Shown in pieces: positions 5,133 to 35,585 of a stretch of 64,000 nucleotides of DNA. Within the stretch, counting starts at the first letter, position 1. Every line of letters starts with the position of its first letter. The notes under the pieces were generated by a model. That model saw nothing but the letters and a program-made list of their open reading frames with translations. It did not search any database and was not told where the DNA came from. The stretch comes from an uncultured Heliomicrobium sp. (GTDB lineage: Bacteria > Acidobacteriota > Blastocatellia > RBC074): NCBI GenBank assembly GCA_964570175.1, contig CAZMXG010000016.1, forward strand, positions 9,746-73,745, in the 5' to 3' direction. A program made the position numbers and the translations under genes.

Positions 5133-5519
5133 TTAAATTGGAAGGTTAAACGACTGACGAATCAAACTACGAATGAATCGACAGCGTTTGATTGCATCTT
5201 TTGCGTCTGCTTTAGACGCGGACTTTCCAGGATAACGAATATCCACCGAATAAGAATTTAAGACCGCCAGGTCGGCCACCATAACATTCCAGCTTGGTTC
5301 GACCGGCGACACCAAATTATGCAGTTGAATCAGGTTATGGGTTTTGCTAAATGGGATGTTGGCTTCCTGCAAGCGGGCTTTCAGGTATTTTTCGACGCAT
5401 TGCTGAACGTGAAAGCAAGTGGCGTTATAGCCGGGATGCTTACGCGCTCGATAAAGTGTTTGAGCGTCATTCCAATCCTCTTCGGCTTTCTCAATCCACT
5501 CCATTGTGATCTGCGTCAT
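5133..5519 (-). CDS. HEPN domain protein (HepT-like toxin of a HEPN/MNT module)
   Basis: The HEPN signature CFHVQQCVEKYLKARL...KTHNLIQL...IRYPG is present. The gene overlaps the upstream MNT gene by 29 nt. Confidence 0.7.
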   Translation of the reverse strand: MTQITMEWIEKAEEDWNDAQTLYRARKHPGYNATCFHVQQCVEKYLKARLQEANIPFSKTHNLIQLHNLVSPVEPSWNVMVADLAVLNSYSVDIRYPGKSASKADAKDAIKRCRFIRSLIRQSFNLPI

Positions 5520-5820
5520 ACATCACCTTCCCATGCTCGGTAATCTCTCTGATAAAGAAATCTCCGAGTTCCAGTCGTTCGTTGATTTCCTTCGGCGTAC
5601 GCAAGAGCAAATCCAACGGCAAATAAGTTCCGACTTTTGTCACCATCTTGATCAGTTGTTGCCGATACTCCCCTTCGTAAGGCATCACAACCAGCAAATC
5701 CACATCCGAATCAGGCGTCGGCTTACCGTAAGCGTGCGATCCGAACAAGATGATTCTTTCCGGATGAAATTCCCGGACAATCTGATCGCACAATTCCTTA
5801 ATTTGCTTTTTGGTAATCAT
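5491..5820 (-). CDS. Minimal nucleotidyltransferase (MntA-like antitoxin)
   Basis: The motif LFGSHAYGKPTPDSDVDLLVV (GS...D.D nucleotidyltransferase fold) is present. The gene lies upstream of and overlaps the HEPN gene. Confidence 0.75.
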   Translation of the reverse strand: MITKKQIKELCDQIVREFHPERIILFGSHAYGKPTPDSDVDLLVVMPYEGEYRQQLIKMVTKVGTYLPLDLLLRTPKEINERLELGDFFIREITEHGKVMYDADHNGVD

Positions 5821-5867: not shown

Positions 5868-5893
5868 CGCTTCCTACCGGTCGCGGTACTGAC
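5868..5893 (-). repeat. Solo copy of the dispersed 26-nt palindromic repeat (cgctTcctaccggtcgcggtactgac)
   Basis: It matches the copies at 13969-14036, 16889-16970 and 34318-34343 with one mismatch. It overlaps the 3' end of the 5874..7022 ORF and contains that ORF's TAG stop. Confidence 0.7.
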
Positions 5894-7022
5894 TTTTCCG
5901 GCCAAGCCCGAACTGATCGCCTGTGCGAACAGGCTTTCCGTCTTTAAAGTCAATTTCCAGCATCTTTTCGCTGTGAACCTGGCCGCCTTTTTCGTCCACC
6001 AATGTCGTGATTAACTTTTTGGTTTTCACGTCGAAGACTTCCCCTGTAGAAGGATAGGCATATTTGCCATCCAAGCTGAACGTTACCCAACCGGGCTGTT
6101 CGCGCACCGGCAAACTGGCAATTTGCTTCGGCGGCATAACGGTGTTGTCGAAGACATGAATTCGTTGGTTGAAGGCATCGGCAATCCAGACTTCTTTTTC
6201 GTCCGGCGTCAGGCCTACGCCGTGACTTGGGCAGCCGTGACGTTTGGTCGGGCCTTTTTGAAAACCGGAAACTTCAACACGAGCCAGCATTTTGCCCGTG
6301 CGAATGTCGCCGATTTCAAATCCCAGCAAATCGTTGACGTTCACATACGCCAACGTCTGCGCTCCATTGATCGTAAATGGGCGAATGACGTTGCTGAAGG
6401 GGCCCACGGTTTTGGTAATTTCGTGTTTGCTGGTGTCGGAGATGTTCAGGATCGGCGATTTAAGACCGGCCAGATAAGCCCATTTGCCGTCCAAACCGAC
6501 AATCGTATTGTGCGCGCCGGATTTAGGAATCAGCTTTTTGATGATGTCGCCGTTTGCAGCATCCAACACATGCCAGTGATCTTTTTCCAGCGAAGGCATG
6601 TAGATAAATTTGCCGTTCGGATCTATTGCCATCCGGTCGGTTCCGCCTTCATACGGCTTTTCCCACAGAATTTTTTCGCTCAGCAGATCAATGCACTGCA
6701 AGGTTTCCGTTGTGCTGATATACACGCGGTTGGTTTTGGCGTTGGCGACGATGCCTTTGACATTGAGCGGTTTGCCTTCCTTGTCGAAACCGGAAGTCTT
6801 GATGCGCTTGAGCAGCTTGTGGCCGTCATCAATGTCGAATACCAACAATCCGTGCCCGCCAAACTCCAGGTAATTGCGAATGCCGGGCGTAGCCACGTAA
6901 AGCAAATGACGTTCGCCAGATTTTCCCTCGCTGACTGCGACAGGCCAAGCAAATGCGAATGTCAACAAAATGGTCAGAGACACAAAACAGAGTTTTTGAA
7001 GCTTCGTCGAGGCGAAAGGCAT
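5874..7022 (-). CDS. Secreted beta-propeller repeat protein (YncE/lactonase-like)
   Basis: There is a signal peptide and repeated roughly 40-residue blades (LYVATPG..., NRVYISTTE..., KFIYMPS..., KWAYLAG...). The C-terminal KSQYRDR and its stop codon are encoded by the repeat element. Confidence 0.45.
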   Translation of the reverse strand: MPFASTKLQKLCFVSLTILLTFAFAWPVAVSEGKSGERHLLYVATPGIRNYLEFGGHGLLVFDIDDGHKLLKRIKTSGFDKEGKPLNVKGIVANAKTNRVYISTTETLQCIDLLSEKILWEKPYEGGTDRMAIDPNGKFIYMPSLEKDHWHVLDAANGDIIKKLIPKSGAHNTIVGLDGKWAYLAGLKSPILNISDTSKHEITKTVGPFSNVIRPFTINGAQTLAYVNVNDLLGFEIGDIRTGKMLARVEVSGFQKGPTKRHGCPSHGVGLTPDEKEVWIADAFNQRIHVFDNTVMPPKQIASLPVREQPGWVTFSLDGKYAYPSTGEVFDVKTKKLITTLVDEKGGQVHSEKMLEIDFKDGKPVRTGDQFGLGRKSQYRDR

Positions 7023-11637: not shown

Positions 11638-13944
11638 TTATCTGATTCGCGCAGAATCTTCCCAGAACCGCCATTTCGCCAATCCGGTTCGTGCCGGAGC
11701 GCCGTCCAGTTGCAACCCAAATGAGTTCGGTTTGGCTTCGAGCAAAGTTTGGTTGCGGAACATAATTTTGGTCATGGTCGCGGCTGAGTACGAGACTTCG
11801 TTCGCTTTGACTCGGGCAAACAGGTACGAAGCATCTGTTTCAAACTCGCCGTACTTCACCTTGCCAAGCGAGTATTGATAGCGCGGTCCAACCTGTTCCC
11901 GCGCCAAATCCATTTCCAGATCAAGCTTGATGCAGATGACGGATTTCTCAGCCCCATCAGTGAACTCCAAGCCGATGGCTTTTCCGGCTTTGTCTACGTC
12001 CAGTAAACGAAACTGCTTTGTCTGAGCGCGAACGTCCTCACCAGCGTCATGAGGGATCAGGACCGTTACGAAGTATTCGTAATCTCCAGCTTTATAAAGG
12101 CTTGAGACAGTCTGATAAATCGAGGTTTCGTCCTGGTAATGGCGCGAAATTGGAAACGTCCCGATCTGTTTGCCGAATGTGTTTTCGGGAAAATGCACCA
12201 ATAGGCGTTTGTTTATGGGCAAAGGGTCTACGTAAATCTTATCTACACCCGTATCGAACGTTTGCTTGTCCTGACTGTGAATCTGTCGCGTATGCCACAG
12301 GTTCGTGAAGGTGAAGTAATCGTTTCTGAGCGCCTTGATGCCATCAACAACGACAAAAAAGTTTTTCTCTTTGACCCAGGTGATGACGCGATCCCATTCG
12401 TAGCCGAGCGCGTCGTCAATGACGCGCGTGCGGCTGACATCCACATCGCGAAACTTCAGGAAATCAATTTTCTGCGTACGCACAGGACGATAGTTGCCAG
12501 AGCCCCGAATAAATTCGTACACGTCCTGCGTTTTGTCGCGTTTGTCTTTGCGAACCACGACGCGGTTGTGGAAGTAATCGGCTCGCCAGGCGCCGTATGG
12601 TCCGCTGGGCAAATCCGGGCGATAGCCTCCGTCGTGAAGCAATACGGAACCGCCACTCATCAATAAAGCAATTGAATTTTCGTCGGCGTGGCCGTGGTGC
12701 ATCTTCTCTTCTTCAACCGAAAGCGTCTGCCGTAGAAAATCACGCCCAAGCCTGCCGCCATCGCCTTCGTCGCGGTAATTCAACAGCATCATTGTGCTGT
12801 CCGGCTGCCAACCGTTGCGGAAAACGACTTTCTTGCCGATCAAATCATCCAGCGCGTCGCCGCTCAAATTTGTCGGAGCCTGCGGCTTGACCGAGTCATC
12901 CGCCCACCGATGTGCATCGGTGAACGCCGAACCTACGCCAGCGCCAATATTCACTTTGGCGAGGTCTGTGATGTTTGAAGCTTTAGCCGAACGCTCTAGC
13001 GCGCGTTTGGTCAATTGCTCCGCCAGAAATTTGTATTGCGGATTGCGGTACACTGCGGCAGCTTTTTCATACACCGGCACGAAGCGTTCCCAGCCGCCGT
13101 TCCAGTGCGCGTCACCAAAATCGGCGATGTTTCCGTGCGGCGTCAGCAACTGGACATAATAATCCAGGTAATACTTGACCATCGGCGATTGCAGCACATC
13201 GTCGCGTTTGGAAACATCGGCATACGAAAACACTGAATACAGCCAAATGCCGTGATAGCCGGTGGCGTCTTCGATTTCCCATTGCTTCATGCTGTCACTG
13301 GCCAGCGTTTCGCCAAGCTGTTTCCACCGCGCGGCATGTGGATGATTGGCCAGCGCTGTTGCGCCGTAAGCCAGACTTTCCGCGCGCAACATCGCCCGGT
13401 TGTGAGCGCCCCATTCCGGAAAGCGGAAAATGAAATCCAGGCTGAAAGCCAGCGCGTCTTCGATTTTGGCTTTGGATTTGGCGTCCAGCACACCGCTTTC
13501 GCGGATACGCATGTACGACCGTGCATACGGGGGCATGATGAAAAAGTTGGAAATAGCCGGAACGCCTTCGGAGTATTCGACACGCTTGGCCTGCATTTCC
13601 TTCGGGTAGATTTCGCGCAAATCGCCGTAGCCCGCCAGAATGTCGCGGGCCTTTTCCGCATACGAACGATCTTTGGTTTCCTGATAAAGGTAGCCAAGCA
13701 AATCCGCCAGATAGATCGGCCCGCCAGGCGAATCGTAGCCCCACAGTTCGTGATGGTTGGGAGCCTTTTTCCAGCGTTCGATGCTCGGTTGATAATCTGC
13801 CCAGCCCGCATCGGCAGCGATTTTGATCCAGTTTAGGTAATCCTTTTTGAGCGTCTGCCCTTTCGAAGAAACAGCAAGCAACAGCAAGCAGGTTGATGAC
13901 AGAAGTAATTTGCGAGAGAAAACGATCAGAGTTTGAAAGTACAT
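11638..13944 (-). CDS. Heparinase II/III-like polysaccharide lyase (secreted)
   Basis: A signal peptide is present. The C-terminal motif HHGHADENSIALLMSGGSVLLHDGGYR matches the Hepar_II_III H.H.D..SF...G..L..D.G..Y pattern. Confidence 0.55.
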   Translation of the reverse strand: MYFQTLIVFSRKLLLSSTCLLLLAVSSKGQTLKKDYLNWIKIAADAGWADYQPSIERWKKAPNHHELWGYDSPGGPIYLADLLGYLYQETKDRSYAEKARDILAGYGDLREIYPKEMQAKRVEYSEGVPAISNFFIMPPYARSYMRIRESGVLDAKSKAKIEDALAFSLDFIFRFPEWGAHNRAMLRAESLAYGATALANHPHAARWKQLGETLASDSMKQWEIEDATGYHGIWLYSVFSYADVSKRDDVLQSPMVKYYLDYYVQLLTPHGNIADFGDAHWNGGWERFVPVYEKAAAVYRNPQYKFLAEQLTKRALERSAKASNITDLAKVNIGAGVGSAFTDAHRWADDSVKPQAPTNLSGDALDDLIGKKVVFRNGWQPDSTMMLLNYRDEGDGGRLGRDFLRQTLSVEEEKMHHGHADENSIALLMSGGSVLLHDGGYRPDLPSGPYGAWRADYFHNRVVVRKDKRDKTQDVYEFIRGSGNYRPVRTQKIDFLKFRDVDVSRTRVIDDALGYEWDRVITWVKEKNFFVVVDGIKALRNDYFTFTNLWHTRQIHSQDKQTFDTGVDKIYVDPLPINKRLLVHFPENTFGKQIGTFPISRHYQDETSIYQTVSSLYKAGDYEYFVTVLIPHDAGEDVRAQTKQFRLLDVDKAGKAIGLEFTDGAEKSVICIKLDLEMDLAREQVGPRYQYSLGKVKYGEFETDASYLFARVKANEVSYSAATMTKIMFRNQTLLEAKPNSFGLQLDGAPARTGLAKWRFWEDSARIR

Positions 13945-13968
13945 GTTGAGACTCAGAGATAAATTTGA

Positions 13969-14036
13969 GTCAGTACCGCGACCGGTAGGGAGCGCCCATC
14001 CTTAATCATTCGCTCCCTACCGGTCGCGGTACTGAC
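13969..14036. repeat. Inverted pair of the 26-nt repeat (gtcagtaccgcgaccggtagggagcg / 16-nt spacer / cgctccctaccggtcgcggtactgac), REP-like hairpin
   Basis: The two arms are perfect 26-nt matches. The element sits between two minus-strand genes and abuts the stop codon at 14037. Confidence 0.75.
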
Positions 14037-15533
14037 TTATCGGGCTAACAACGCTGGTTTCAGCGTCCAGGCTTGCAACTTGGCAAGCTCCATCAGTTTC
14101 GGCGCGTGAAAGCCTTCCGGAAAAATTACCCAGCCCCATAGCGGGGTCGAATCCTCGGCGACATATTGATCAGCAACGAAAAGGCCTTGCCGCAAAGCAA
14201 CGGTCAAATTTCCGTCGTAGCTTCTCCAGCTTTCAATGACAGCGCCAAGCGTCGCCAGGTAATCCTGCGGCGAAAAGCTCTGCGCGCCAATCCAGACTTC
14301 GTCGGGGATTCGCCCGTGCGTCTGAATGAATCGCGCAACATCGCGCACCGTTTCGGAAAACTCGACCAGGCGAACCGTCGTTGGCTTATTGCCGCCAACT
14401 GATGTCGAAAACGTTCTTGCGGGACCATAAAGCAATTTCAGCTTCAGCGGCTGTTTTTTGCCGTCCAGCAACGAAAGATAGGCTTCCGTCAGCAAAGCGA
14501 AACTATCCGCTGCCGATAACGCAAGACCGTTCATCTGCTGAAAGCTGATTTCTTTCTGCACGGATTGCGCGATGGCAACAATCTCTTTTTGCGTGAAGTT
14601 GAAGCCTAGCGCGCGATCTTGGTAAAACTTCATCAGTTCAGCGCAATGAACAAATTGAACGCCCGGCTGTTTTTGCATGAACTGGACGTATTGTTCGAAG
14701 TCGCGGTAATTGCGTTCGATTTCTTCGGCGGTTTGCATTGGCGGCAGCTTCCATTCGCTGCGTGGAGGGTTTGCTCCTCGCCGAAAATTGACGCCATCCC
14801 AGAATTCCCGATGAACGAATTCGCACGGGTGATAAACAATGCTGATCGTTCCGCCGCCGCGTTGCCACAGTTTTTCGGCAGCTTGCTGAAACTTCGTTTG
14901 CGCCGTTGACAGATTGTCCTGCTTGCCCAAATCCATGCGCGTCAAGTTCGAACCCATTTTGAAAACATTCAGCATGCCACCGTAATAAAACGGTTGCTCA
15001 GCGATGCCGACGTGGCTGGAATCGTCCAAATACATCGAAACGCCCATCTTTTTCAGCGCTGGATGACTCTGCGGTCCCCAGGAACTTCCAGGCTGACCGT
15101 AGCAAATTGGTGTCACGCCAAAGATACGTTCGATGTCGCGTACGCCTTGCACTTCGCGGCGATAAAACTCGGCAATGCCATCTTCCCAACCGGCATTTTG
15201 CAGATACACGGCTGGCGTGGGCTGACCGCTATGCAAGTTGGCGTGATAGCCGATCTCGTGTTTTTTCAGCGCAGCGATGACGTCTTTGCGGCCACGCTGT
15301 TCCAACACACGAGCCTTTTCGCCGACGATCTTGAAGGTAGCTTTGACGCCCATCCGCGTCAGCATCTCAGCAATACGCTTCGCGGCGTCATCGCTTTGCG
15401 GCAGGATGTAATCTTCCGTATCGAACCACAGCGTGACGTAAATTGGCGCGGCAGATTGGGAAGCGGCCTGCTTCCCTGCTGACAGAATCCCAACCAGCAG
15501 CACAACCAACAGCAGGAGAGTTCGTCTGTGCAT
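14037..15533 (-). CDS. Secreted polysaccharide deacetylase-like / carbohydrate-active hydrolase (tentative)
   Basis: A signal peptide is present, and [10 protein letters not shown] ... HEIGYH resembles the NodB-type deacetylase motifs TFDDG and HEIGNH. Confidence 0.35.
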
Positions 15534-15656: not shown

Positions 15657-16670
15657 TCATCGCCCTAAAAACAGATCGCGGCCCGCCACCAGCGCAGCGA
15701 TCTTGCGGTCGGCGATGGAGCGTTTGTTCATCCAGAAACCACAATCCGGATTGACCCATTTGATTCTCCCTTCACCGACAATTTTTGCGGCGGTTTCAAT
15801 CCTGTTGGCAATTTCTTCCGGCGATTCGACCGTGTTGACCTTGATGTCAATCACGCCAAGGCCAATGCCGATGCGCGGGTCGAGTTCGTCTTTGAAATAT
15901 TGCAATTCGTCGTAGCCGCGAAACGCCATTTCCAGCAGCACGTGGTCGCAATGCAGCCGATTGATAAAGCCAATCAGTTTTTGCCAGGTTCCGCGCTGAA
16001 TGGATTGGCCGCCGTAATTGCCGAAACACATATGAACGCCTTTTTCTTTGGCTTGCGTGGCGGCATCAAGCACAACGTTAATTGCGGCGGCTGCCCATTC
16101 GGCTTCGTCTGCGTGTCCAGTGATATTGGCTTCGTCCACTTGAATCACTTCGCTGTCAATTTCGGCGACTTGCCGCGCTAGTGCCTGTCCAATCGCCAGC
16201 GCCAGATCGGGTAAATTACCGTAATGATGATCCATCAGGGTTTTGCAAAGCATGTGCGGGCCAGTCAGCGTGAATTTCATCGGATGCTTGGTGCAGGCGC
16301 GGGCGCGGCGGTAATCTTCGCCCAGGCTCAGCGTGCCTTCACCGATGACGCCTTCGACCACACCAGCGGGCGCGGCGCGGAAGCCCATGCCTTCCAATTT
16401 GCGAAACTCTTCCACGTCGCTGCGCGTCACACGCGAACGAATGCCGTCCATCGGGCGAATAAAATACTCAATCATTCCATTGGTATCGGGATGATTGACA
16501 TCCCAACGATACAGTTCGCCATCAGCGATGACATCAATGCCTGCCAGTTCCTGAATCTTGAAAACCACCTTGGTTGCGTCAATTAAAGCCTGCTGGCTGG
16601 GCAGCGCAATCAGCCATTCAGGCACCGGGTAAGAACCGACAACAGTAGTGCGTATTGCAGGTGCGGTCAC
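15657..16670 (-). CDS. Cobalamin-independent methionine synthase (MetE C-terminal domain)-like methyltransferase
   Basis: IRTTVVGSYPVPEWL and ...KWVNPDCGF are MetE/UroD-like motifs. I placed the start at GTG 16670 because an AAGGAG Shine-Dalgarno lies 7 nt upstream. The longer ORF from 16886 would run into the repeat. Confidence 0.7.
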   Translation of the reverse strand: MTAPAIRTTVVGSYPVPEWLIALPSQQALIDATKVVFKIQELAGIDVIADGELYRWDVNHPDTNGMIEYFIRPMDGIRSRVTRSDVEEFRKLEGMGFRAAPAGVVEGVIGEGTLSLGEDYRRARACTKHPMKFTLTGPHMLCKTLMDHHYGNLPDLALAIGQALARQVAEIDSEVIQVDEANITGHADEAEWAAAAINVVLDAATQAKEKGVHMCFGNYGGQSIQRGTWQKLIGFINRLHCDHVLLEMAFRGYDELQYFKDELDPRIGIGLGVIDIKVNTVESPEEIANRIETAAKIVGEGRIKWVNPDCGFWMNKRSIADRKIAALVAGRDLFLGR

Positions 16671-16888
16671 GAATTTCTCCTTTTTCCCACCAAGCCACAT
16701 GAAGGAACACGAAGATGGACGCGAAGTCAGCTCTGTTATTCGTGCTGTTTCGTGTGACTTTGTGGACGAATGTATGTCTTGAAAGTGGCGCGAGTATAGC
16801 AACGAGTCCGAGTCATGCAAGCCGCTGGGCAGTCGGGCGAATTTCCCGTAAGATGCGCGCCACATTTCGTACGTATCTTCATTCAAAA

Positions 16889-16970
16889 TCAGTACCGTGA
16901 CCGGTAGGGAGCAAGTACCCGAAAATGCTCAATCCTGACAACCGCGCTCCCTACCGGTCGCGGTACTGAC
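16889..16970. repeat. Inverted pair of the 26-nt repeat family (one arm has a single variant base, ccgTga) with a 32-nt spacer
   Basis: The arms are tcagtaccgtgaccggtagggagc and cgctccctaccggtcgcggtactgac. The pair lies in the divergent intergenic region between the MetE-like gene and the transporter gene. Confidence 0.7.
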
Positions 16971-16989
16971 TCAGATCAAAGGAAACCGA

Positions 16990-18039
16990 ATGGCTGAATC
17001 TTTATCGCCTCTTGGCTTGCTGATGGCGGGATCAACTTCGATCAGCAACGTCGTCAAAGACATCTCTGCAAAAAAGGTCGTTGACCACCACGAACTGTTT
17101 GCCTCTACGTTTTGGATTCGGCTGTTTGCCGGGTTGACGTTTTTGCTGGCGTTGGGCTGGCGCGTGATGAGCGGAAACGCTCCGCACTTTCGCAACGACG
17201 GCGGGGAATACTTTGGAATTGATGGATTACTGCTAGGCCCCTGGGCAACCTACCTGACGTATCTAACGATTGAAGTTTTGCTGGTTGCTGGTTCGACGCT
17301 GCTGTATTTCCGAGCCATGCAGGTGACTCCAATTTCGCTTTGCATGCCGTATATTTCCTTCACGCCAGTCTTTTTGATTGTCACCGGCTGGTATGTGAAC
17401 GGCGAAGGCATTTCGGTTGAAAAAGGCGTTGGCGTGGTGTTGATTTTCGTTGGTTCGATTGCCATGCACCGCTTGCTGTTTTCAAACGGCTGGCTGGAAC
17501 CGATCAAAGCCATCTGGCGCGAACGCGGTTGTTTTTACATGCTGGTGGTTGCCCTGGTAAACGCCATCACCAATCCAATTGATGCCCGGTTGGTGCGTAT
17601 GACTGACGCTTTTGTCCAGGCAGCGGCGTTTGGATTGGGGATGGTCGTCTTTTTCACCGTGTTGCTGCTTGCTAGCAAAGCCGACGCCGGAAAAGTCATT
17701 CGCTCGGTTCCGTTTTGGGTCGTGCTGGCCGGCGTGCTGGAAGCGGTCGCGTTGATCTTCCAGCTGTCTTCGCACAATTACATCGCGGTCGTGTACACCA
17801 TCAGCATCAAACGCGCCGGAATCATTTTGGTGATTTTGCTGGGCTGGCTGGTCTTCAAGGAAAAGAACATCGGCGATAAGCTGATTGCGGCTTCAGTCAT
17901 GCTGGTTGGCGTCCTGATTATCTACTTGCCGATTTCGCTTATGCAGGCGTTGATGATTGCGGCGGTAGCACTTGCTGGAATGATGCTGGCGTTTTATCTG
18001 ACCAGAGAGAAGAAGGAGAAAGCGGTTGAGCTGCCCTGA
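16990..18039 (+). CDS. Polytopic membrane transporter, DMT/EamA-like (tentative)
   Basis: About 10 predicted transmembrane helices. An AAAGGAAA Shine-Dalgarno precedes the ATG. The family assignment rests on topology only. Confidence 0.4.
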   Translation: MAESLSPLGLLMAGSTSISNVVKDISAKKVVDHHELFASTFWIRLFAGLTFLLALGWRVMSGNAPHFRNDGGEYFGIDGLLLGPWATYLTYLTIEVLLVAGSTLLYFRAMQVTPISLCMPYISFTPVFLIVTGWYVNGEGISVEKGVGVVLIFVGSIAMHRLLFSNGWLEPIKAIWRERGCFYMLVVALVNAITNPIDARLVRMTDAFVQAAAFGLGMVVFFTVLLLASKADAGKVIRSVPFWVVLAGVLEAVALIFQLSSHNYIAVVYTISIKRAGIILVILLGWLVFKEKNIGDKLIAASVMLVGVLIIYLPISLMQALMIAAVALAGMMLAFYLTREKKEKAVELP

Positions 18040-18065
18040 AGTAAATGAGCCAGGAGCTTTTTTCT

Positions 18066-18150
18066 TCACCGCAGAGGCGCAGAGAACGCAAAGGCTTCGC
18101 AGAGGTTTTTTCTCCGCGTTGCCTCTGCGGACGTTGCGCCTCTGCGGTGA
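18066..18150. repeat. Imperfect palindromic repeat element built from GCAGAGG/CCTCTGC units
   Basis: The outer arms are tcaccgcagaggcgc ... gcgcctctgcggtga with inner imperfect arms. Both strands give matching pseudo-ORFs through it (FTAEAQR..RLCGE), as expected for a palindrome. Confidence 0.6.
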
Positions 18151-18157
18151 AATTGGT

Positions 18158-32919: not shown

Positions 32920-33294
32920 TCAATCTGGGTTTTCAACCGCAATCATCAGTTTCAGGCTTACAATCAAGGGCGGCAAATCATTGACCAGAATTTGCCAGAG
33001 AATGTCGAAATCCACAGAGTCATAACCGTGAATAAGCCGTTTGCGAAGGCTGACGATTTGCGGCCAGGGAATTTCGGGGTGGTTTTCACATTGCTCTTTG
33101 GGAACTCAGCCCGCTGCTTCTCCAACGACCTCAAGTAGACGTGTCAAAGCAAGATTCAGCATTCGGTCAGTGTCGAGCTCAGAGCGCGTTCGCCCTTGTG
33201 CCAGCGAAACTGCTTCTTCAGCGTGGCTCAGCATATGCCGCAAAGCAATAATCGGGTCACGCTTGCTCATACTGAGCCTCCGCTTCCAATTCAA
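32920..33294 (-). pseudogene. HepT/DUF86 (HEPN) toxin gene interrupted by an in-frame TGA (opal) codon at 33106-33108
   Basis: The N-terminal half (..LALTRLLEVVGEAAG) and the downstream same-frame half (VPKEQCENHPEIPWPQIVSLRKRLIHGYDSVDFDILW...) together form a full DUF86 protein, including the R-x4-H-x-Y motif. The only defect is the single in-frame stop. Confidence 0.55.
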
Positions 33295-33559
33295 CCAGAT
33301 GCCGAATTTCCGGGCTAAGGAATTGAGGAGTGTTTAGATCAACCTTGCGTCCCAATAAGCCCGAAAGCTCGGCTTCCAAAGTAAAGAACGCCAAGCCGGG
33401 AACGTGCCCCGGTTCAAATTCGACGAGAACATCCACATCGCTGTCAGGGCGAAAATCTTCGCGTAAGACGGAACCAAAAAACGCCAATCGGCGAATGTTG
33501 CTTCGGCGACAGAAGTCACTCAATTTGGATTTATCGAAGTTGATGCGAACCATGGTCAT
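33257..33559 (-). CDS. Nucleotidyltransferase (MntA-like antitoxin partner of the disrupted HepT)
   Basis: The motif RLAFFGSVLREDFRPDSDVDVLVEF is present. The gene overlaps the HepT start by 38 nt. Confidence 0.75.
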   Translation of the reverse strand: MTMVRINFDKSKLSDFCRRSNIRRLAFFGSVLREDFRPDSDVDVLVEFEPGHVPGLAFFTLEAELSGLLGRKVDLNTPQFLSPEIRHLVELEAEAQYEQA

Positions 33560-33575
33560 CCCTTTTCAGACTATT

Positions 33576-35585
33576 TTAGACAGTAAAATACCGCCCCAAA
33601 GCCGTCAACGGAAACTGATTTCGATACTGGTGGTAGTTGATATAAAAATGCCCCGGAAAACCCGTGCCTGTAAATTCAGCTTCCGGCCAACTGCCGTCGG
33701 AGTTTTGCTTGCTGAGCAAGTATTCAATTCCCCTTTTGACTGAATCGCTTTCAAAATCCCCCGCAGCCATCAGCCCCATCAACGCCCAAGCGGTTTGCGA
33801 AGGCGTGCTGGGACCTTTGCCGCGAAGCTCCGGCTTCTTGTACGAATCGCAAGTTTCGCCCCAGCCTCCGTCGGCATTTTGAACGCCGCGTAGCCAGGCG
33901 GCGGCTTGCGCGATGCGATCACAGTTCATGTCAAAACCGATATGCGGAGCGATGGAGCGCAAGCCAACCAACGCCAGATAGGTGCCATAAATATAGTTGA
34001 CTCCCCAGCGTCCCCACCACGAACCGTCTTTCTCTTGAAGACTGAGCAAAAAGTTGATGGCGCGCTGTACGTCAGAATCGCGGTACAGCTTTTCGCCGTG
34101 CCTTGATTGCCAGTGCCCAAGCAATTCCAACACGCGTCCGGTCAGATCGGCGGTCGGCGGATCAATCATCGCTTTCAGATCGCCGTATGGCATCTGGTTC
34201 CAAAGATCGTTGGTGTTATCTATGTCGAATGCTGCCCAGCCGCCGACCTTGCATTGCATAGACATCACCCATTCGGTGGCGGCGCGGCAGGCTTCCAGCT
34301 TGTAGCCTTCATTTACCCGCTCCCTACCGGTCGCGGTACTGACTCCAAGCAAAGCCATGATCACTGCCGCTGTGTCGTCCACGTCGGGATAATAATCGTT
34401 GTAAAACTCGAAAGCCCATCCTGCGGGTTTGCCTTTGCGATTGTAGACAGCCCAGTCGCCATAGCGAAAAATCTGTTTGGTCAACAGCCATTCGCCAGCG
34501 GCTTTGATGCGCGAATCGGTCGGCGAAACTCCGGAATCCAGCAGCGCCGTTAATCCAAGCGCCGTGTCCCAGGTCGGCGAAATGCAAGGTTGCAAGCGCA
34601 AATACTGCGGCAATTCGGAGTCGCTCATTGCACCTTCTTCGATGCAAAACCGGTCGAGCGCATCCAGACCGCGTTTAATGTACGGATGTTCTGCCGAATA
34701 CCCAAGCGCGTGAAACATCAGAATCGAATTCAACATTGCCGGAACGATCCCAGCCCAATCGCCGGAGGTGTCTTGCCGTTCAATCACCCAGCGCTCGGCG
34801 GCTTCGATTCCCGCCTGGCGAAAAGGAACGATGCCAAGCTGATCCAGCAGCTTCAACGTTTGGTCTGCCGCCAGAAAAAGACTTCCAATCGTAGTGCCAT
34901 CATTGTTTTTCAATCCGGTGTCAGCAGTTGCCTGGCCGCCCTCGGTGAACAACTCTTCGGCATAAATTCCCAGGTCGTAAACGGGCTTCTTATCAATCAC
35001 GACCAGCAGCGGAACGGTCGAAGAGCGCGCCCAGCTTGCCATTGAATACACATTGAACGGAAACCACGTGGGCAAAAACATAAACCACGGCGGCAAGGTG
35101 GGAATTCCGCTCCACGGATAAGCCCCAAACAAAGCCAGATGCAGCTTGGTAAAGACGCGAGCCTTTGTCAGCCCGCCGCGCTCAAGAACAAACTTGCGCG
35201 CTTGCTGCATCGGCAATTCATCTTCACCGTGCCCAGCCAGTTTCAGCGCGAAGTACGCTTCAATGGTCGTGCTGATTTCCCCGCCGTCGCCATAAAACAG
35301 CTCCCAGCCTCCATGCGAACATTGCTGGCGCAGCAGGTAGCGCGCCATTTGCTGAATCTGCGCCTCGCGGTCGCGTCCATTGCTGAAAGAATTTTTGGAG
35401 TTGGCATGAATCAAAATGCGATGAAGCATGATGTATTCCGCCGTCAGCGTGACATTGGCTTCCAGTTCCGCCCACCAAAATCCTTCCAGGTTTTGTTGTG
35501 CAAACAAATAACCTTGGGCGCGATTGATGGCATCAGCCAGACGCGGTTGTACGGTTTGTTGAATTGCTGTTTGCGGAATACTCAT
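33576..35585 (-). CDS. shc: Squalene-hopene cyclase
   Basis: The DVDDTA motif (YYPDVDDTAAV) and multiple QW repeats are present (GGW.., QNADGGWGE). The protein is 669 aa. Confidence 0.9.
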   Translation of the reverse strand: MSIPQTAIQQTVQPRLADAINRAQGYLFAQQNLEGFWWAELEANVTLTAEYIMLHRILIHANSKNSFSNGRDREAQIQQMARYLLRQQCSHGGWELFYGDGGEISTTIEAYFALKLAGHGEDELPMQQARKFVLERGGLTKARVFTKLHLALFGAYPWSGIPTLPPWFMFLPTWFPFNVYSMASWARSSTVPLLVVIDKKPVYDLGIYAEELFTEGGQATADTGLKNNDGTTIGSLFLAADQTLKLLDQLGIVPFRQAGIEAAERWVIERQDTSGDWAGIVPAMLNSILMFHALGYSAEHPYIKRGLDALDRFCIEEGAMSDSELPQYLRLQPCISPTWDTALGLTALLDSGVSPTDSRIKAAGEWLLTKQIFRYGDWAVYNRKGKPAGWAFEFYNDYYPDVDDTAAVIMALLGVSTATGRERVNEGYKLEACRAATEWVMSMQCKVGGWAAFDIDNTNDLWNQMPYGDLKAMIDPPTADLTGRVLELLGHWQSRHGEKLYRDSDVQRAINFLLSLQEKDGSWWGRWGVNYIYGTYLALVGLRSIAPHIGFDMNCDRIAQAAAWLRGVQNADGGWGETCDSYKKPELRGKGPSTPSQTAWALMGLMAAGDFESDSVKRGIEYLLSKQNSDGSWPEAEFTGTGFPGHFYINYHQYRNQFPLTALGRYFTV
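34318..34343 (-). repeat. Copy of the 26-nt repeat embedded in-frame inside the shc coding sequence
   Basis: cgctccctaccggtcgcggtactgac is an exact match to the intergenic copies. In shc it encodes VSTATGRER, located just after the DVDDTA motif. Confidence 0.7.

Follow-up and report, generated by a model that had tools for sequence, protein, structure and literature searches.

How does a copy of an intergenic repeat come to be translated inside an enzyme, a few residues away from its catalytic motif, in a gene that remains intact? The question is raised by a stretch of 64,000 nucleotides (hereafter the window; contig CAZMXG010000016.1) from an uncultured Heliomicrobium sp. that GTDB places in the class Blastocatellia of the Acidobacteriota. 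Within its gene for squalene-hopene cyclase (SHC), shc, the window contains 26 nucleotides that are identical to repeat copies lying between other genes. [quoted passage not shown] The features of the locus are the following.

33576-35585, minus strand: coding sequence of shc (open reading frame, ORF, of 669 amino acids), squalene-hopene cyclase
34305-34346, minus strand: segment of shc that codes for the loop, residues 414-427 (GVSTATGRERVNEG), between the post-DxDD helix and the next helix
34318-34345, minus strand: solo repeat unit within shc, GAGTCAGTACCGCGACCGGTAGGGAGCG; the 26-mer occupies 34318-34343 and a weak GGT extends to 34315

The repeat unit in the loop of squalene-hopene cyclase

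As judged from its sequence, the shc ORF encodes an SHC: its product is similar over the full length to the solved enzyme of Alicyclobacillus acidocaldarius (PDB 1GSZ/2SQC; phmmer E = 8e-150, residues 11-666 aligned), the DxDD(TA) acid motif is present as DVDDTA (residues 401-406, encoded at 34368-34385), and both SQHop_cyclase_N/C domains (PF13249/PF13243) are found in its homologues (n = 6635), the closest of which are labelled Acidobacteriota/Blastocatellia. The synteny of shc is conserved, with DUF3810 upstream.

The first-pass annotation, made from the letters of the window alone, had reported an exact 26-nt copy of an intergenic repeat inside shc, translated as VSTATGRER eight residues after DVDDTA, and both statements hold. 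Positions 34318-34343, which read CGCTCCCTACCGGTCGCGGTACTGAC on the plus strand, match in 26 of 26 nucleotides three copies located between genes, at 13969-13994 (minus), 14011-14036 (plus) and 16945-16970 (plus), and imperfect copies of the 26-mer occur at 5868-5893 (one mismatch) and 16888-16913 (three mismatches). The agreement with the family consensus extends over 28 nt (34318-34345), or over 31 nt (34315-34345) if the weak GGT is included. Across 100 dinucleotide-preserving shuffles, no match to the 26-mer was obtained. On the minus strand, the ORF reads GTC AGT ACC GCG ACC GGT AGG GAG CG(G) at positions 34317-34343, i.e., VSTATGRER as residues 415-423, and eight residues separate this peptide from DVDDTA. 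The structure predicted for RNA around the unit is not unusual (z = -0.77).

It had also been noted that this part of the protein is about six residues longer than in the Alicyclobacillus SHC, and the phmmer alignment of the two (...ALNTLRLPD/ERRRRDA... of Alicyclobacillus against ...ALLGVSTATGRERVNEGYKLEA... of the query) contains a six-residue gap exactly there. Among the 120 best SHC homologues, which are 69-95% identical to the query, about 110 have the loop LLxxK[LT]DDDEYKLEAC, with eight residues from LL to Y as in Alicyclobacillus, versus 14 in the query; the eight-residue group includes homologues as close as P0002-P0004 (92% identical to the query), P0008 (88%) and P0011 (85%). The clean indel that had been proposed as a check is therefore present. 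At the DNA level, about 33 nt of the query lineage (GGA GTC ... CGG GTA) replaced about 15 nt found in the uninserted sisters (GCG CTG AAG AYT GAC), and this net gain of 18 nt answers the concern that an insertion of 26 nt would shift the frame. In an AlphaFold2 model, which was built from a 29-sequence alignment, has a moderate mean predicted local distance difference test score (pLDDT) of 74 and was used only for secondary structure near the site, residues 402-413 and 426-442 are helical and residues 414-425 form a coil, with pLDDT below 50 at residues 419-423. The insert is thus predicted to occupy a loop between two helices, and the orthologue indel, this location and the DNA identity together support the suggestion that repeat-derived sequence was acquired in a loop.

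Seven other shc genes carry the unit DNA, with 0-4 differences from the family consensus and with differing junctions. Their loops are longer by 3 (L078; L numbers denote fetched loci), 6 (P0001), 10 (P0007 and P0010), 11 (P0005) or 15 residues (P0006 and P0009), and nucleotide gains of 9, 30, 33 or 45 nt are found among the carrier relatives; in P0006 and P0009 two direct units are present in shc, the first of them with a 3-nt deletion. The first-pass annotation had reasoned that the same peptide encoded by the same DNA in relatives free of the repeat would point to convergence or ancestral sequence. The point calls for caution. Several orthologues do have nearly identical peptide and DNA, but at least two such genomes carry the family elsewhere (L005 has a second copy of the unit besides that in shc, and the L078 genome is the source of many stretches in the pattern scan described below) and the uninserted orthologues keep the ancestral loop, so that the presence of the segment in repeat-free relatives was not shown. 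For the other carriers, the unit in shc is the only one across their loci of 13-22 kb.

The nucleotide identity also exceeds what the encoded peptide requires. In addition to the perfect match with three intergenic copies, only 10.8% of the sites of the 28-nt unit differ among the eight shc carriers, against a gene average of 16% and 33% at third codon positions, and the units of the query and L078 are identical despite a third-position divergence of 35%. Counted by hand over codons, departures from consensus in the shc units are about equally frequent at third positions and at first and second positions, with about seven changes that alter an amino acid and about four silent ones. Because the changes are about equally frequent at third and other positions, the pattern looks like conservation of DNA and not of the peptide.

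We propose that a unit lodged in DNA coding for the SHC surface loop just behind the catalytic DxDD helix and replaced the ancestral K-[LT]-D part of this loop. The gene would have stayed intact because the frame is stop-free, the net change in length is divisible by three and the loop is tolerant. The insertion was likely selfish or near-neutral and not adaptive, and the solo unit may have been tolerated in part because it is unable to form the long hairpin of the pairs. A process acting on DNA may have kept the shc unit near consensus, be it gene conversion templated by other copies or insertion into this site more than once.

The repeat family and its copies in other genes

A scan with the core pattern CAGTACCGYGACCGGTAGRRAGC, with one genome per species, returned at least 104 stretches and placed the family in at least 23 species-level metagenome-assembled genomes (MAGs), nearly all of which are labelled Blastocatellia/Acidobacteriota. 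MAGs that carry the family are often labelled 'uncultured Heliomicrobium sp.', a Bacillota genus in the NCBI taxonomy; this is probably a labelling problem, as one of these MAGs, the L078 genome, encodes an SHC 90% identical to the acidobacterial one. The contig that bears one unit (L114) belongs to a MAG labelled Byssovorax (Myxococcota), which hints at mis-binning or transfer.

The consensus of 179 copies, in which both edges are sharp, is YGA-RTCAGTACCGCGACCGGTAGGGAGCG followed by the weak GGT, and the conserved unit is about 29 nt long (28-29 nt; about 32 nt with the weak edges). The arm of variant B, GTCAGTACCGCGCGCGGTAGCAAGCG, holds a perfect 14-nt palindrome, TACCGCGCGCGGTA. Units form 68 inverted pairs of a single relative orientation, with GAGCG ends inward, arms of 26-29 nt and spacers of two length classes, 16-18 and 31-33 nt, and the paired elements measure 70-90 bp; solo units are common (73 of 185), and a few direct tandem arrays also occur. 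One of these (L015 1790-2040) has five tandem copies with a 54-nt period and one unit each, and a CRISPR-like reading of direct copies with 28-nt gaps was rejected because the array simply repeats a 54-nt segment in tandem, the "spacer" with it. No Rfam family matches were found in the window at gathering thresholds.

In the DASUFM genome, eight copies of a nested palindrome of about 128 nt, with sharp ends and unrelated flanks, were found (L057, L066, L103, L106, L059, L012, L027 and L093). Their layout, CTAAATCAGACCA..AGATTGG-[unit]-18 nt-[unit]-..CCAATCTT..TGGTCTGATTTAG, is that of a composite, MITE-like form built around a unit pair. In the relative L009, no unit was found in the spacer between Meth_synt_2 and EamA, which is orthologous to a spacer of the window that holds a pair. 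The unrelated flanks of the DASUFM copies and the empty orthologous spacer of L009 imply that the family is, or recently was, mobile.

Insertion into coding sequence is not confined to shc. In the fetched loci, 21 of the 97 evaluable elements lie within a dominant long ORF, which is an upper-side estimate because at least one such ORF (L082 3725-4796) passes the dominant-ORF rule yet is probably spurious. The long ORF of L040 also looks spurious from its translation and has no Pfam match, and GC content at third codon positions, which is non-discriminating at 53% GC, was replaced as a coding test by the dominant-ORF rule together with Pfam. Four of the six reading frames of the unit are stop-free, the remaining two containing TAG or TGA, and all four are used in host genes, one giving LPTGRGTD. 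The hosts backed by Pfam are a glycoside hydrolase family 2 (GH2) protein (L036, with an orthologue, L067, in another species), a PTPS-related membrane protein (L072, with the orthologue L021), a PMT_2 glycosyltransferase-like protein (L076), a Reg_prop propeller (L083), a TIR-NACHT-FGE-sulfatase protein (L089) and a second SHC (L078). In L089, the FGE-sulfatase domain houses a complete unit pair as a clean insert: compared with the EgtB structure 4X8B, the protein has 30 additional residues, ESAPRPVGSG...PLPTGRGTD among them, at a point where EgtB passes straight from residue 292 to 293. In-frame copies within genes are a habit of the whole family, which belongs in this respect to the same functional class as the Rickettsia palindromic elements (RPEs). 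The host proteins of L036, L067 and L076 also contain low-complexity stretches, for instance SAIRNPQSAI and SQISNLKSQIS, that look like translations of other short DNA repeats.

In the two pairs of orthologous hosts, the arms are nearly identical and the spacers differ. Between L036 269-3970 (minus) and L067 6473-7891 (plus), one arm with its flank is identical over 39 nt and the 13-nt spacer differs at about ten positions, in coding sequence that is about 85% identical around the element by codon alignment. Between L072 84-1820 (minus) and L021 5925-7124 (minus), the arms are identical at 32 of 32 and 26 of 27 positions, the spacers (31 vs 16 nt) are unrelated, and identity in the coding sequence downstream is 79%. 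This reflects either turnover of the spacers or re-insertion at the sites. Spacer turnover could be explained by instability of the palindrome centre through cleavage of the hairpin and its imprecise repair, a mechanism established in other systems; for the constancy of the arms, possible causes are conversion by other copies, insertion into this site anew and selection on the arms.

Competing histories of the shc site

Several observations weigh against the assignment of the shc segment to a mobile family of the REPIN/MITE type. The self-complementarity of the main variant is limited to TACCG/CGGTA, a 5-bp stem with a 4-nt loop, which is not that of a textbook REP, and its invariant GTAG (consensus positions 16-19) is not terminal but overlaps the stem, with the conserved GGAGCG coming after it. 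REPINs are copied whole; the spacer sequences of the pairs are not conserved between loci here, which is unexpected if the pairs copy themselves in this way. A tblastn search of 913 kb of loci with E. coli RayT gave nothing below E = 1, and with no transposase found, the mobilising mechanism is unproven. Both the translation of VSTATGRER and SHC activity are assumed from the intact ORF. Finally, in a bootstrapped neighbour-joining tree of shc with the loop masked, the clade of the query with P0001, P0002, P0003 and P0004 has 100% bootstrap support and monophyly of the insertion carriers 0%. As the carriers are non-monophyletic, at least two events are needed, and a single simple insertion fails to explain the data. 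We give similar weight to the two histories that could account for this, an insertion hot spot and one old insertion with transfer or loss of alleles.

The first history, which is quite possible if short of an even chance, refines the mobile-family reading: owing to target preference, the same shc loop would have been struck independently in at least two lineages (query/P0001 and P0005/6/7/9/10). Besides the bootstrap values, it is favoured by the 3' flank of the query (N-E-G-Y, then TAC AAG CTG GAA GCC), which matches that of the uninserted sisters P0002-4 (D-D/E-G-Y), whereas S-D-D-Y or G-S-E-D-Y, with other codons downstream, is found in the remaining carriers. At least five junction configurations exist among the eight carriers. 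The wholly different spacers, or spacers of another length class, at orthologous sites in other genes point in the same direction, as do the different REPs described near the same site of Xanthomonas recB (Di Nocera et al., PMC3733652). Recurrent insertion is harder to reconcile with the position of the unit, which in seven of the eight carriers ends exactly four codons before a conserved Tyr codon, in the same frame and orientation: such a constant 3' geometry fits a single origin, unless targeting is very precise. In addition, the P0010 junction would become that of the query if 12 nt were deleted between CTNGG direct repeats, and the uninserted loops have no obvious target motif.

The constant frame and 3' geometry speak for the second history, a single ancient insertion, perhaps of a tandem dimer as in P0006/P0009, that later decayed by small deletions and became patchy through homologous recombination of alleles or through precise losses; we regard it as a tentative possibility that deserves to be taken seriously. 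The 5' flanks of P0005, P0007 and P0010 resemble a decayed first unit of the P0006/P0009 dimer. Of the 23 sites that unite the query with the carriers, 8 are concentrated in the 1200-1350 nt bin, and the identity of the query to P0002 falls to 0.78-0.80 around the site, with an identity to carriers of 0.88-0.90 just upstream. However, the clustered sites are almost all inside the loop or the unit, and no long recombination tract is visible around the site, since sliding-window identity and informative sites show a signal only there. Downstream of the unit, the query resembles P0002 and not the carriers, and in the clade's uninserted members the ancestral K-[TL]-D-D loop persists, so that a precise loss would have to rebuild it.

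Alternatively, the unit could be more than a decaying selfish insert and be actively kept at consensus by a sequence-specific process, across species and in essential-looking genes, with quick turnover of the sequence between and next to units; we consider this unlikely. Candidates for such upkeep are a domesticated system resembling Y1 transposases that re-installs units at their former sites, targeted gene conversion, and biased DNA uptake or recombination. If this were true, Blastocatellia would offer a natural example of protein loops that are rewritten again and again by one repeat family.

Still less probable, in our judgement, is that the unit is functional in place and is kept by selection, whether as a DNA signal (bound by protein or of the uptake type), as a site of RNA pairing or as a peptide useful to SHC. 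Its conservation in at least 23 species and inside genes, where it changes more slowly than the host-gene average, the combination of conserved arms with spacers that are free to change, and the patchy distribution, which biased uptake or recombination could produce, would agree with a function. Yet the host genes are mutually unrelated, close relatives have shc without the unit, substitutions that change an amino acid are by hand count about as common in the unit as silent ones, which speaks against peptide-level selection, Rfam has no match and the solo unit is unstructured. The density is also low: over its 64 kb the window has four elements made of six units, or roughly one element every 16 kb, and the loci of relatives have 0-2 units per 7-22 kb. 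DNA uptake sequences occur roughly once per kb, and an identification of the family with such sequences was rejected on this ground. That the similarity arose by chance or convergence, or that the family derives from a fragment of shc, is effectively refuted, since nothing beyond the shared sequence itself speaks for it, the identity is 26 of 26 where chance predicts zero matches, the similarity breaks off at the unit edges, no shc flank accompanies the other copies, most orthologues, i.e., those outside one small clade, lack the segment, and the inserted shc allele has a far narrower distribution than the family.

Relation to known elements and the other units of the window

The mobiliser of the family may be a Y1 transposase, of the REP-associated (RAYT) or terminal inverted repeat-associated (TIRYT) type, or another transposase encoded elsewhere in the genome, and the TIRYT type appears to be the most plausible one. 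Acidobacteria such as Koribacter versatilis are reported to have Y1 transposases with long flanking inverted repeats (TIRtron/TIRYT) that can seed repeat families (PMC3733652). A RAYT gene between units that lie about 800 bp apart in L042 and L082 was considered and rejected, the ORFs there being an ABC ATPase and an agmatinase-like gene. No target-site duplication is evident in the flanks of the pairs or of the DASUFM composite copies, and no parent insertion sequence was seen among the loci examined.

RPEs were reportedly found by Ogata and colleagues in 2000 to be inserted in frame in protein-coding genes. Like them, the family described here is a small palindromic mobile repeat that is often in frame within unrelated, apparently functional genes, adds a family-specific peptide at tolerant sites and has copies common to several species. 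RPEs are of about 100-150 bp, carry a CGTC tag and reside in an obligate intracellular alphaproteobacterium, whereas our family has a unit of about 29 nt (70-90 bp when paired), an unrelated sequence without a terminal CGTC tag, and free-living Acidobacteriota as hosts; about one fifth of its elements are intragenic, versus nearly half for the inserting RPE families (PMC10969869). By its size, sequence and missing tag, it is an analogue of the RPEs and not a member of the RPE sequence family. In-frame insertion of RPEs is summarised in PMC10969869 and PMC3733652, and a review of MITEs of bacteria that give rise to in-frame fusions (ERIC, Nezha, Correia/NEMIS and BOX) is PMC10969869.

The GTAG/CGTC REPs occur as singletons, inverted dimers and clusters, some of them wholly within ORFs and some donating TAG stops, and different REPs can lie at about one and the same position of orthologous genes (Di Nocera, De Gregorio and Rocco 2013, PMC3733652). 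The same forms, copies internal to ORFs and the donation of TAG are seen in our family. Its GTAG, in contrast, is internal, overlaps the stem and precedes six conserved bases, and the stem of the main variant has only 5 bp. In that survey, GTAG REPs were found in Proteobacteria, Cyanobacteria, Chloroflexi and the PVC (Planctomycetes-Verrucomicrobia-Chlamydiae) group, not in Acidobacteria (PMC3733652).

The family shares with REPs and REPINs the organisation in inverted doublets, with hairpins, singletons and clusters, and departs from them in the lack of a terminal GTAG. REPINs and RAYT transposases were reportedly treated together by Bertels and Rainey in 2011. The likeness to REPINs lies in the inverted doublets of a unit of about 25-30 nt, the long hairpins and the persistence across related species; the spacers that are not conserved between loci set the family apart from REPINs, and in the 913 kb of loci no RAYT or TIRYT gene was found beside the units. 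With MITEs it has in common terminal inverted repeats of about 27 nt, the lack of coding capacity, a multicopy state with unrelated flanks and a 128-nt composite that multiplied as a unit in one genome. It differs from MITEs in that no target-site duplication was seen, the basic element is far shorter and solo units are common.

In-frame intragenic palindromic repeats are thus already known and the acidobacterial family is a further example of them, although we found no description of such a family in Acidobacteria/Blastocatellia in the literature. It extends the in-frame colonisation of genes by tiny palindromic repeats, best known from Rickettsia, to the class Blastocatellia of the free-living soil phylum Acidobacteriota. 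The shc insertion is a concrete, datable case beside the catalytic motif of a well-studied enzyme, and since inserted and uninserted alleles both exist among close relatives, the structural or functional cost of the insert is testable. For annotation, the family is a warning that lineage-specific loop insertions in these genomes may be derived from repeats and that some stop codons are supplied by them. The conserved arms, fast-changing spacers and patchy insertion make the maintenance of such families a tractable question.

The units of the window outside shc are the following.

13966-14039, no strand assigned: intergenic inverted pair with a 16-nt spacer, between the stop of ORF 14037-15533 (minus) and the start of ORF 11638-13944 (minus)
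16886-16972, no strand assigned: intergenic inverted pair with a 31-nt spacer, between the divergent genes Meth_synt_2 (15657-16886, minus) and EamA (16990-18039, plus)
5868-5895, plus strand: solo unit with one mismatch, whose GTAG provides the TAG stop (5874-5876) of ORF 5874-7022 (minus)

As RNA, the pair at 13966-14039 is predicted to fold into a 27-bp hairpin (-59.7 kcal/mol, z = -10.5) and that at 16886-16972 into a 24-bp hairpin (-49.5 kcal/mol, z = -8.9); delimited more narrowly, the pairs span 13968-14037 and 16888-16970. ORF 5874-7022 has a weak PQQ_2 match, and its last residues, SQYRDR*, are supplied by the unit. The agmatinase-like ORF of L082 (4656-5459, minus), which is unrelated to it, is likewise terminated by a unit, as QYRDQ*; the donation of TAG stops by REP termini was described by Di Nocera et al. 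(2013, PMC3733652). A separate inverted repeat at 18065-18151, just past EamA, has 40-nt arms (80% complementary) and a 7-nt loop, is of the GCAGAGGCGCAGAGAACGC type and may belong to another repeat family.

Directly downstream of shc lies a gene for an MNT-type nucleotidyltransferase (33257-33559, minus), which has a HepT partner in relatives. The MNT gene beside shc is present in some genomes and missing in others (L003, L007 and L008 versus L001, L005 and L010), i.e., MNT/HepT is a variable toxin-antitoxin cassette at this position, and a second gene of the MNT type is found in the window at 5491-5820.

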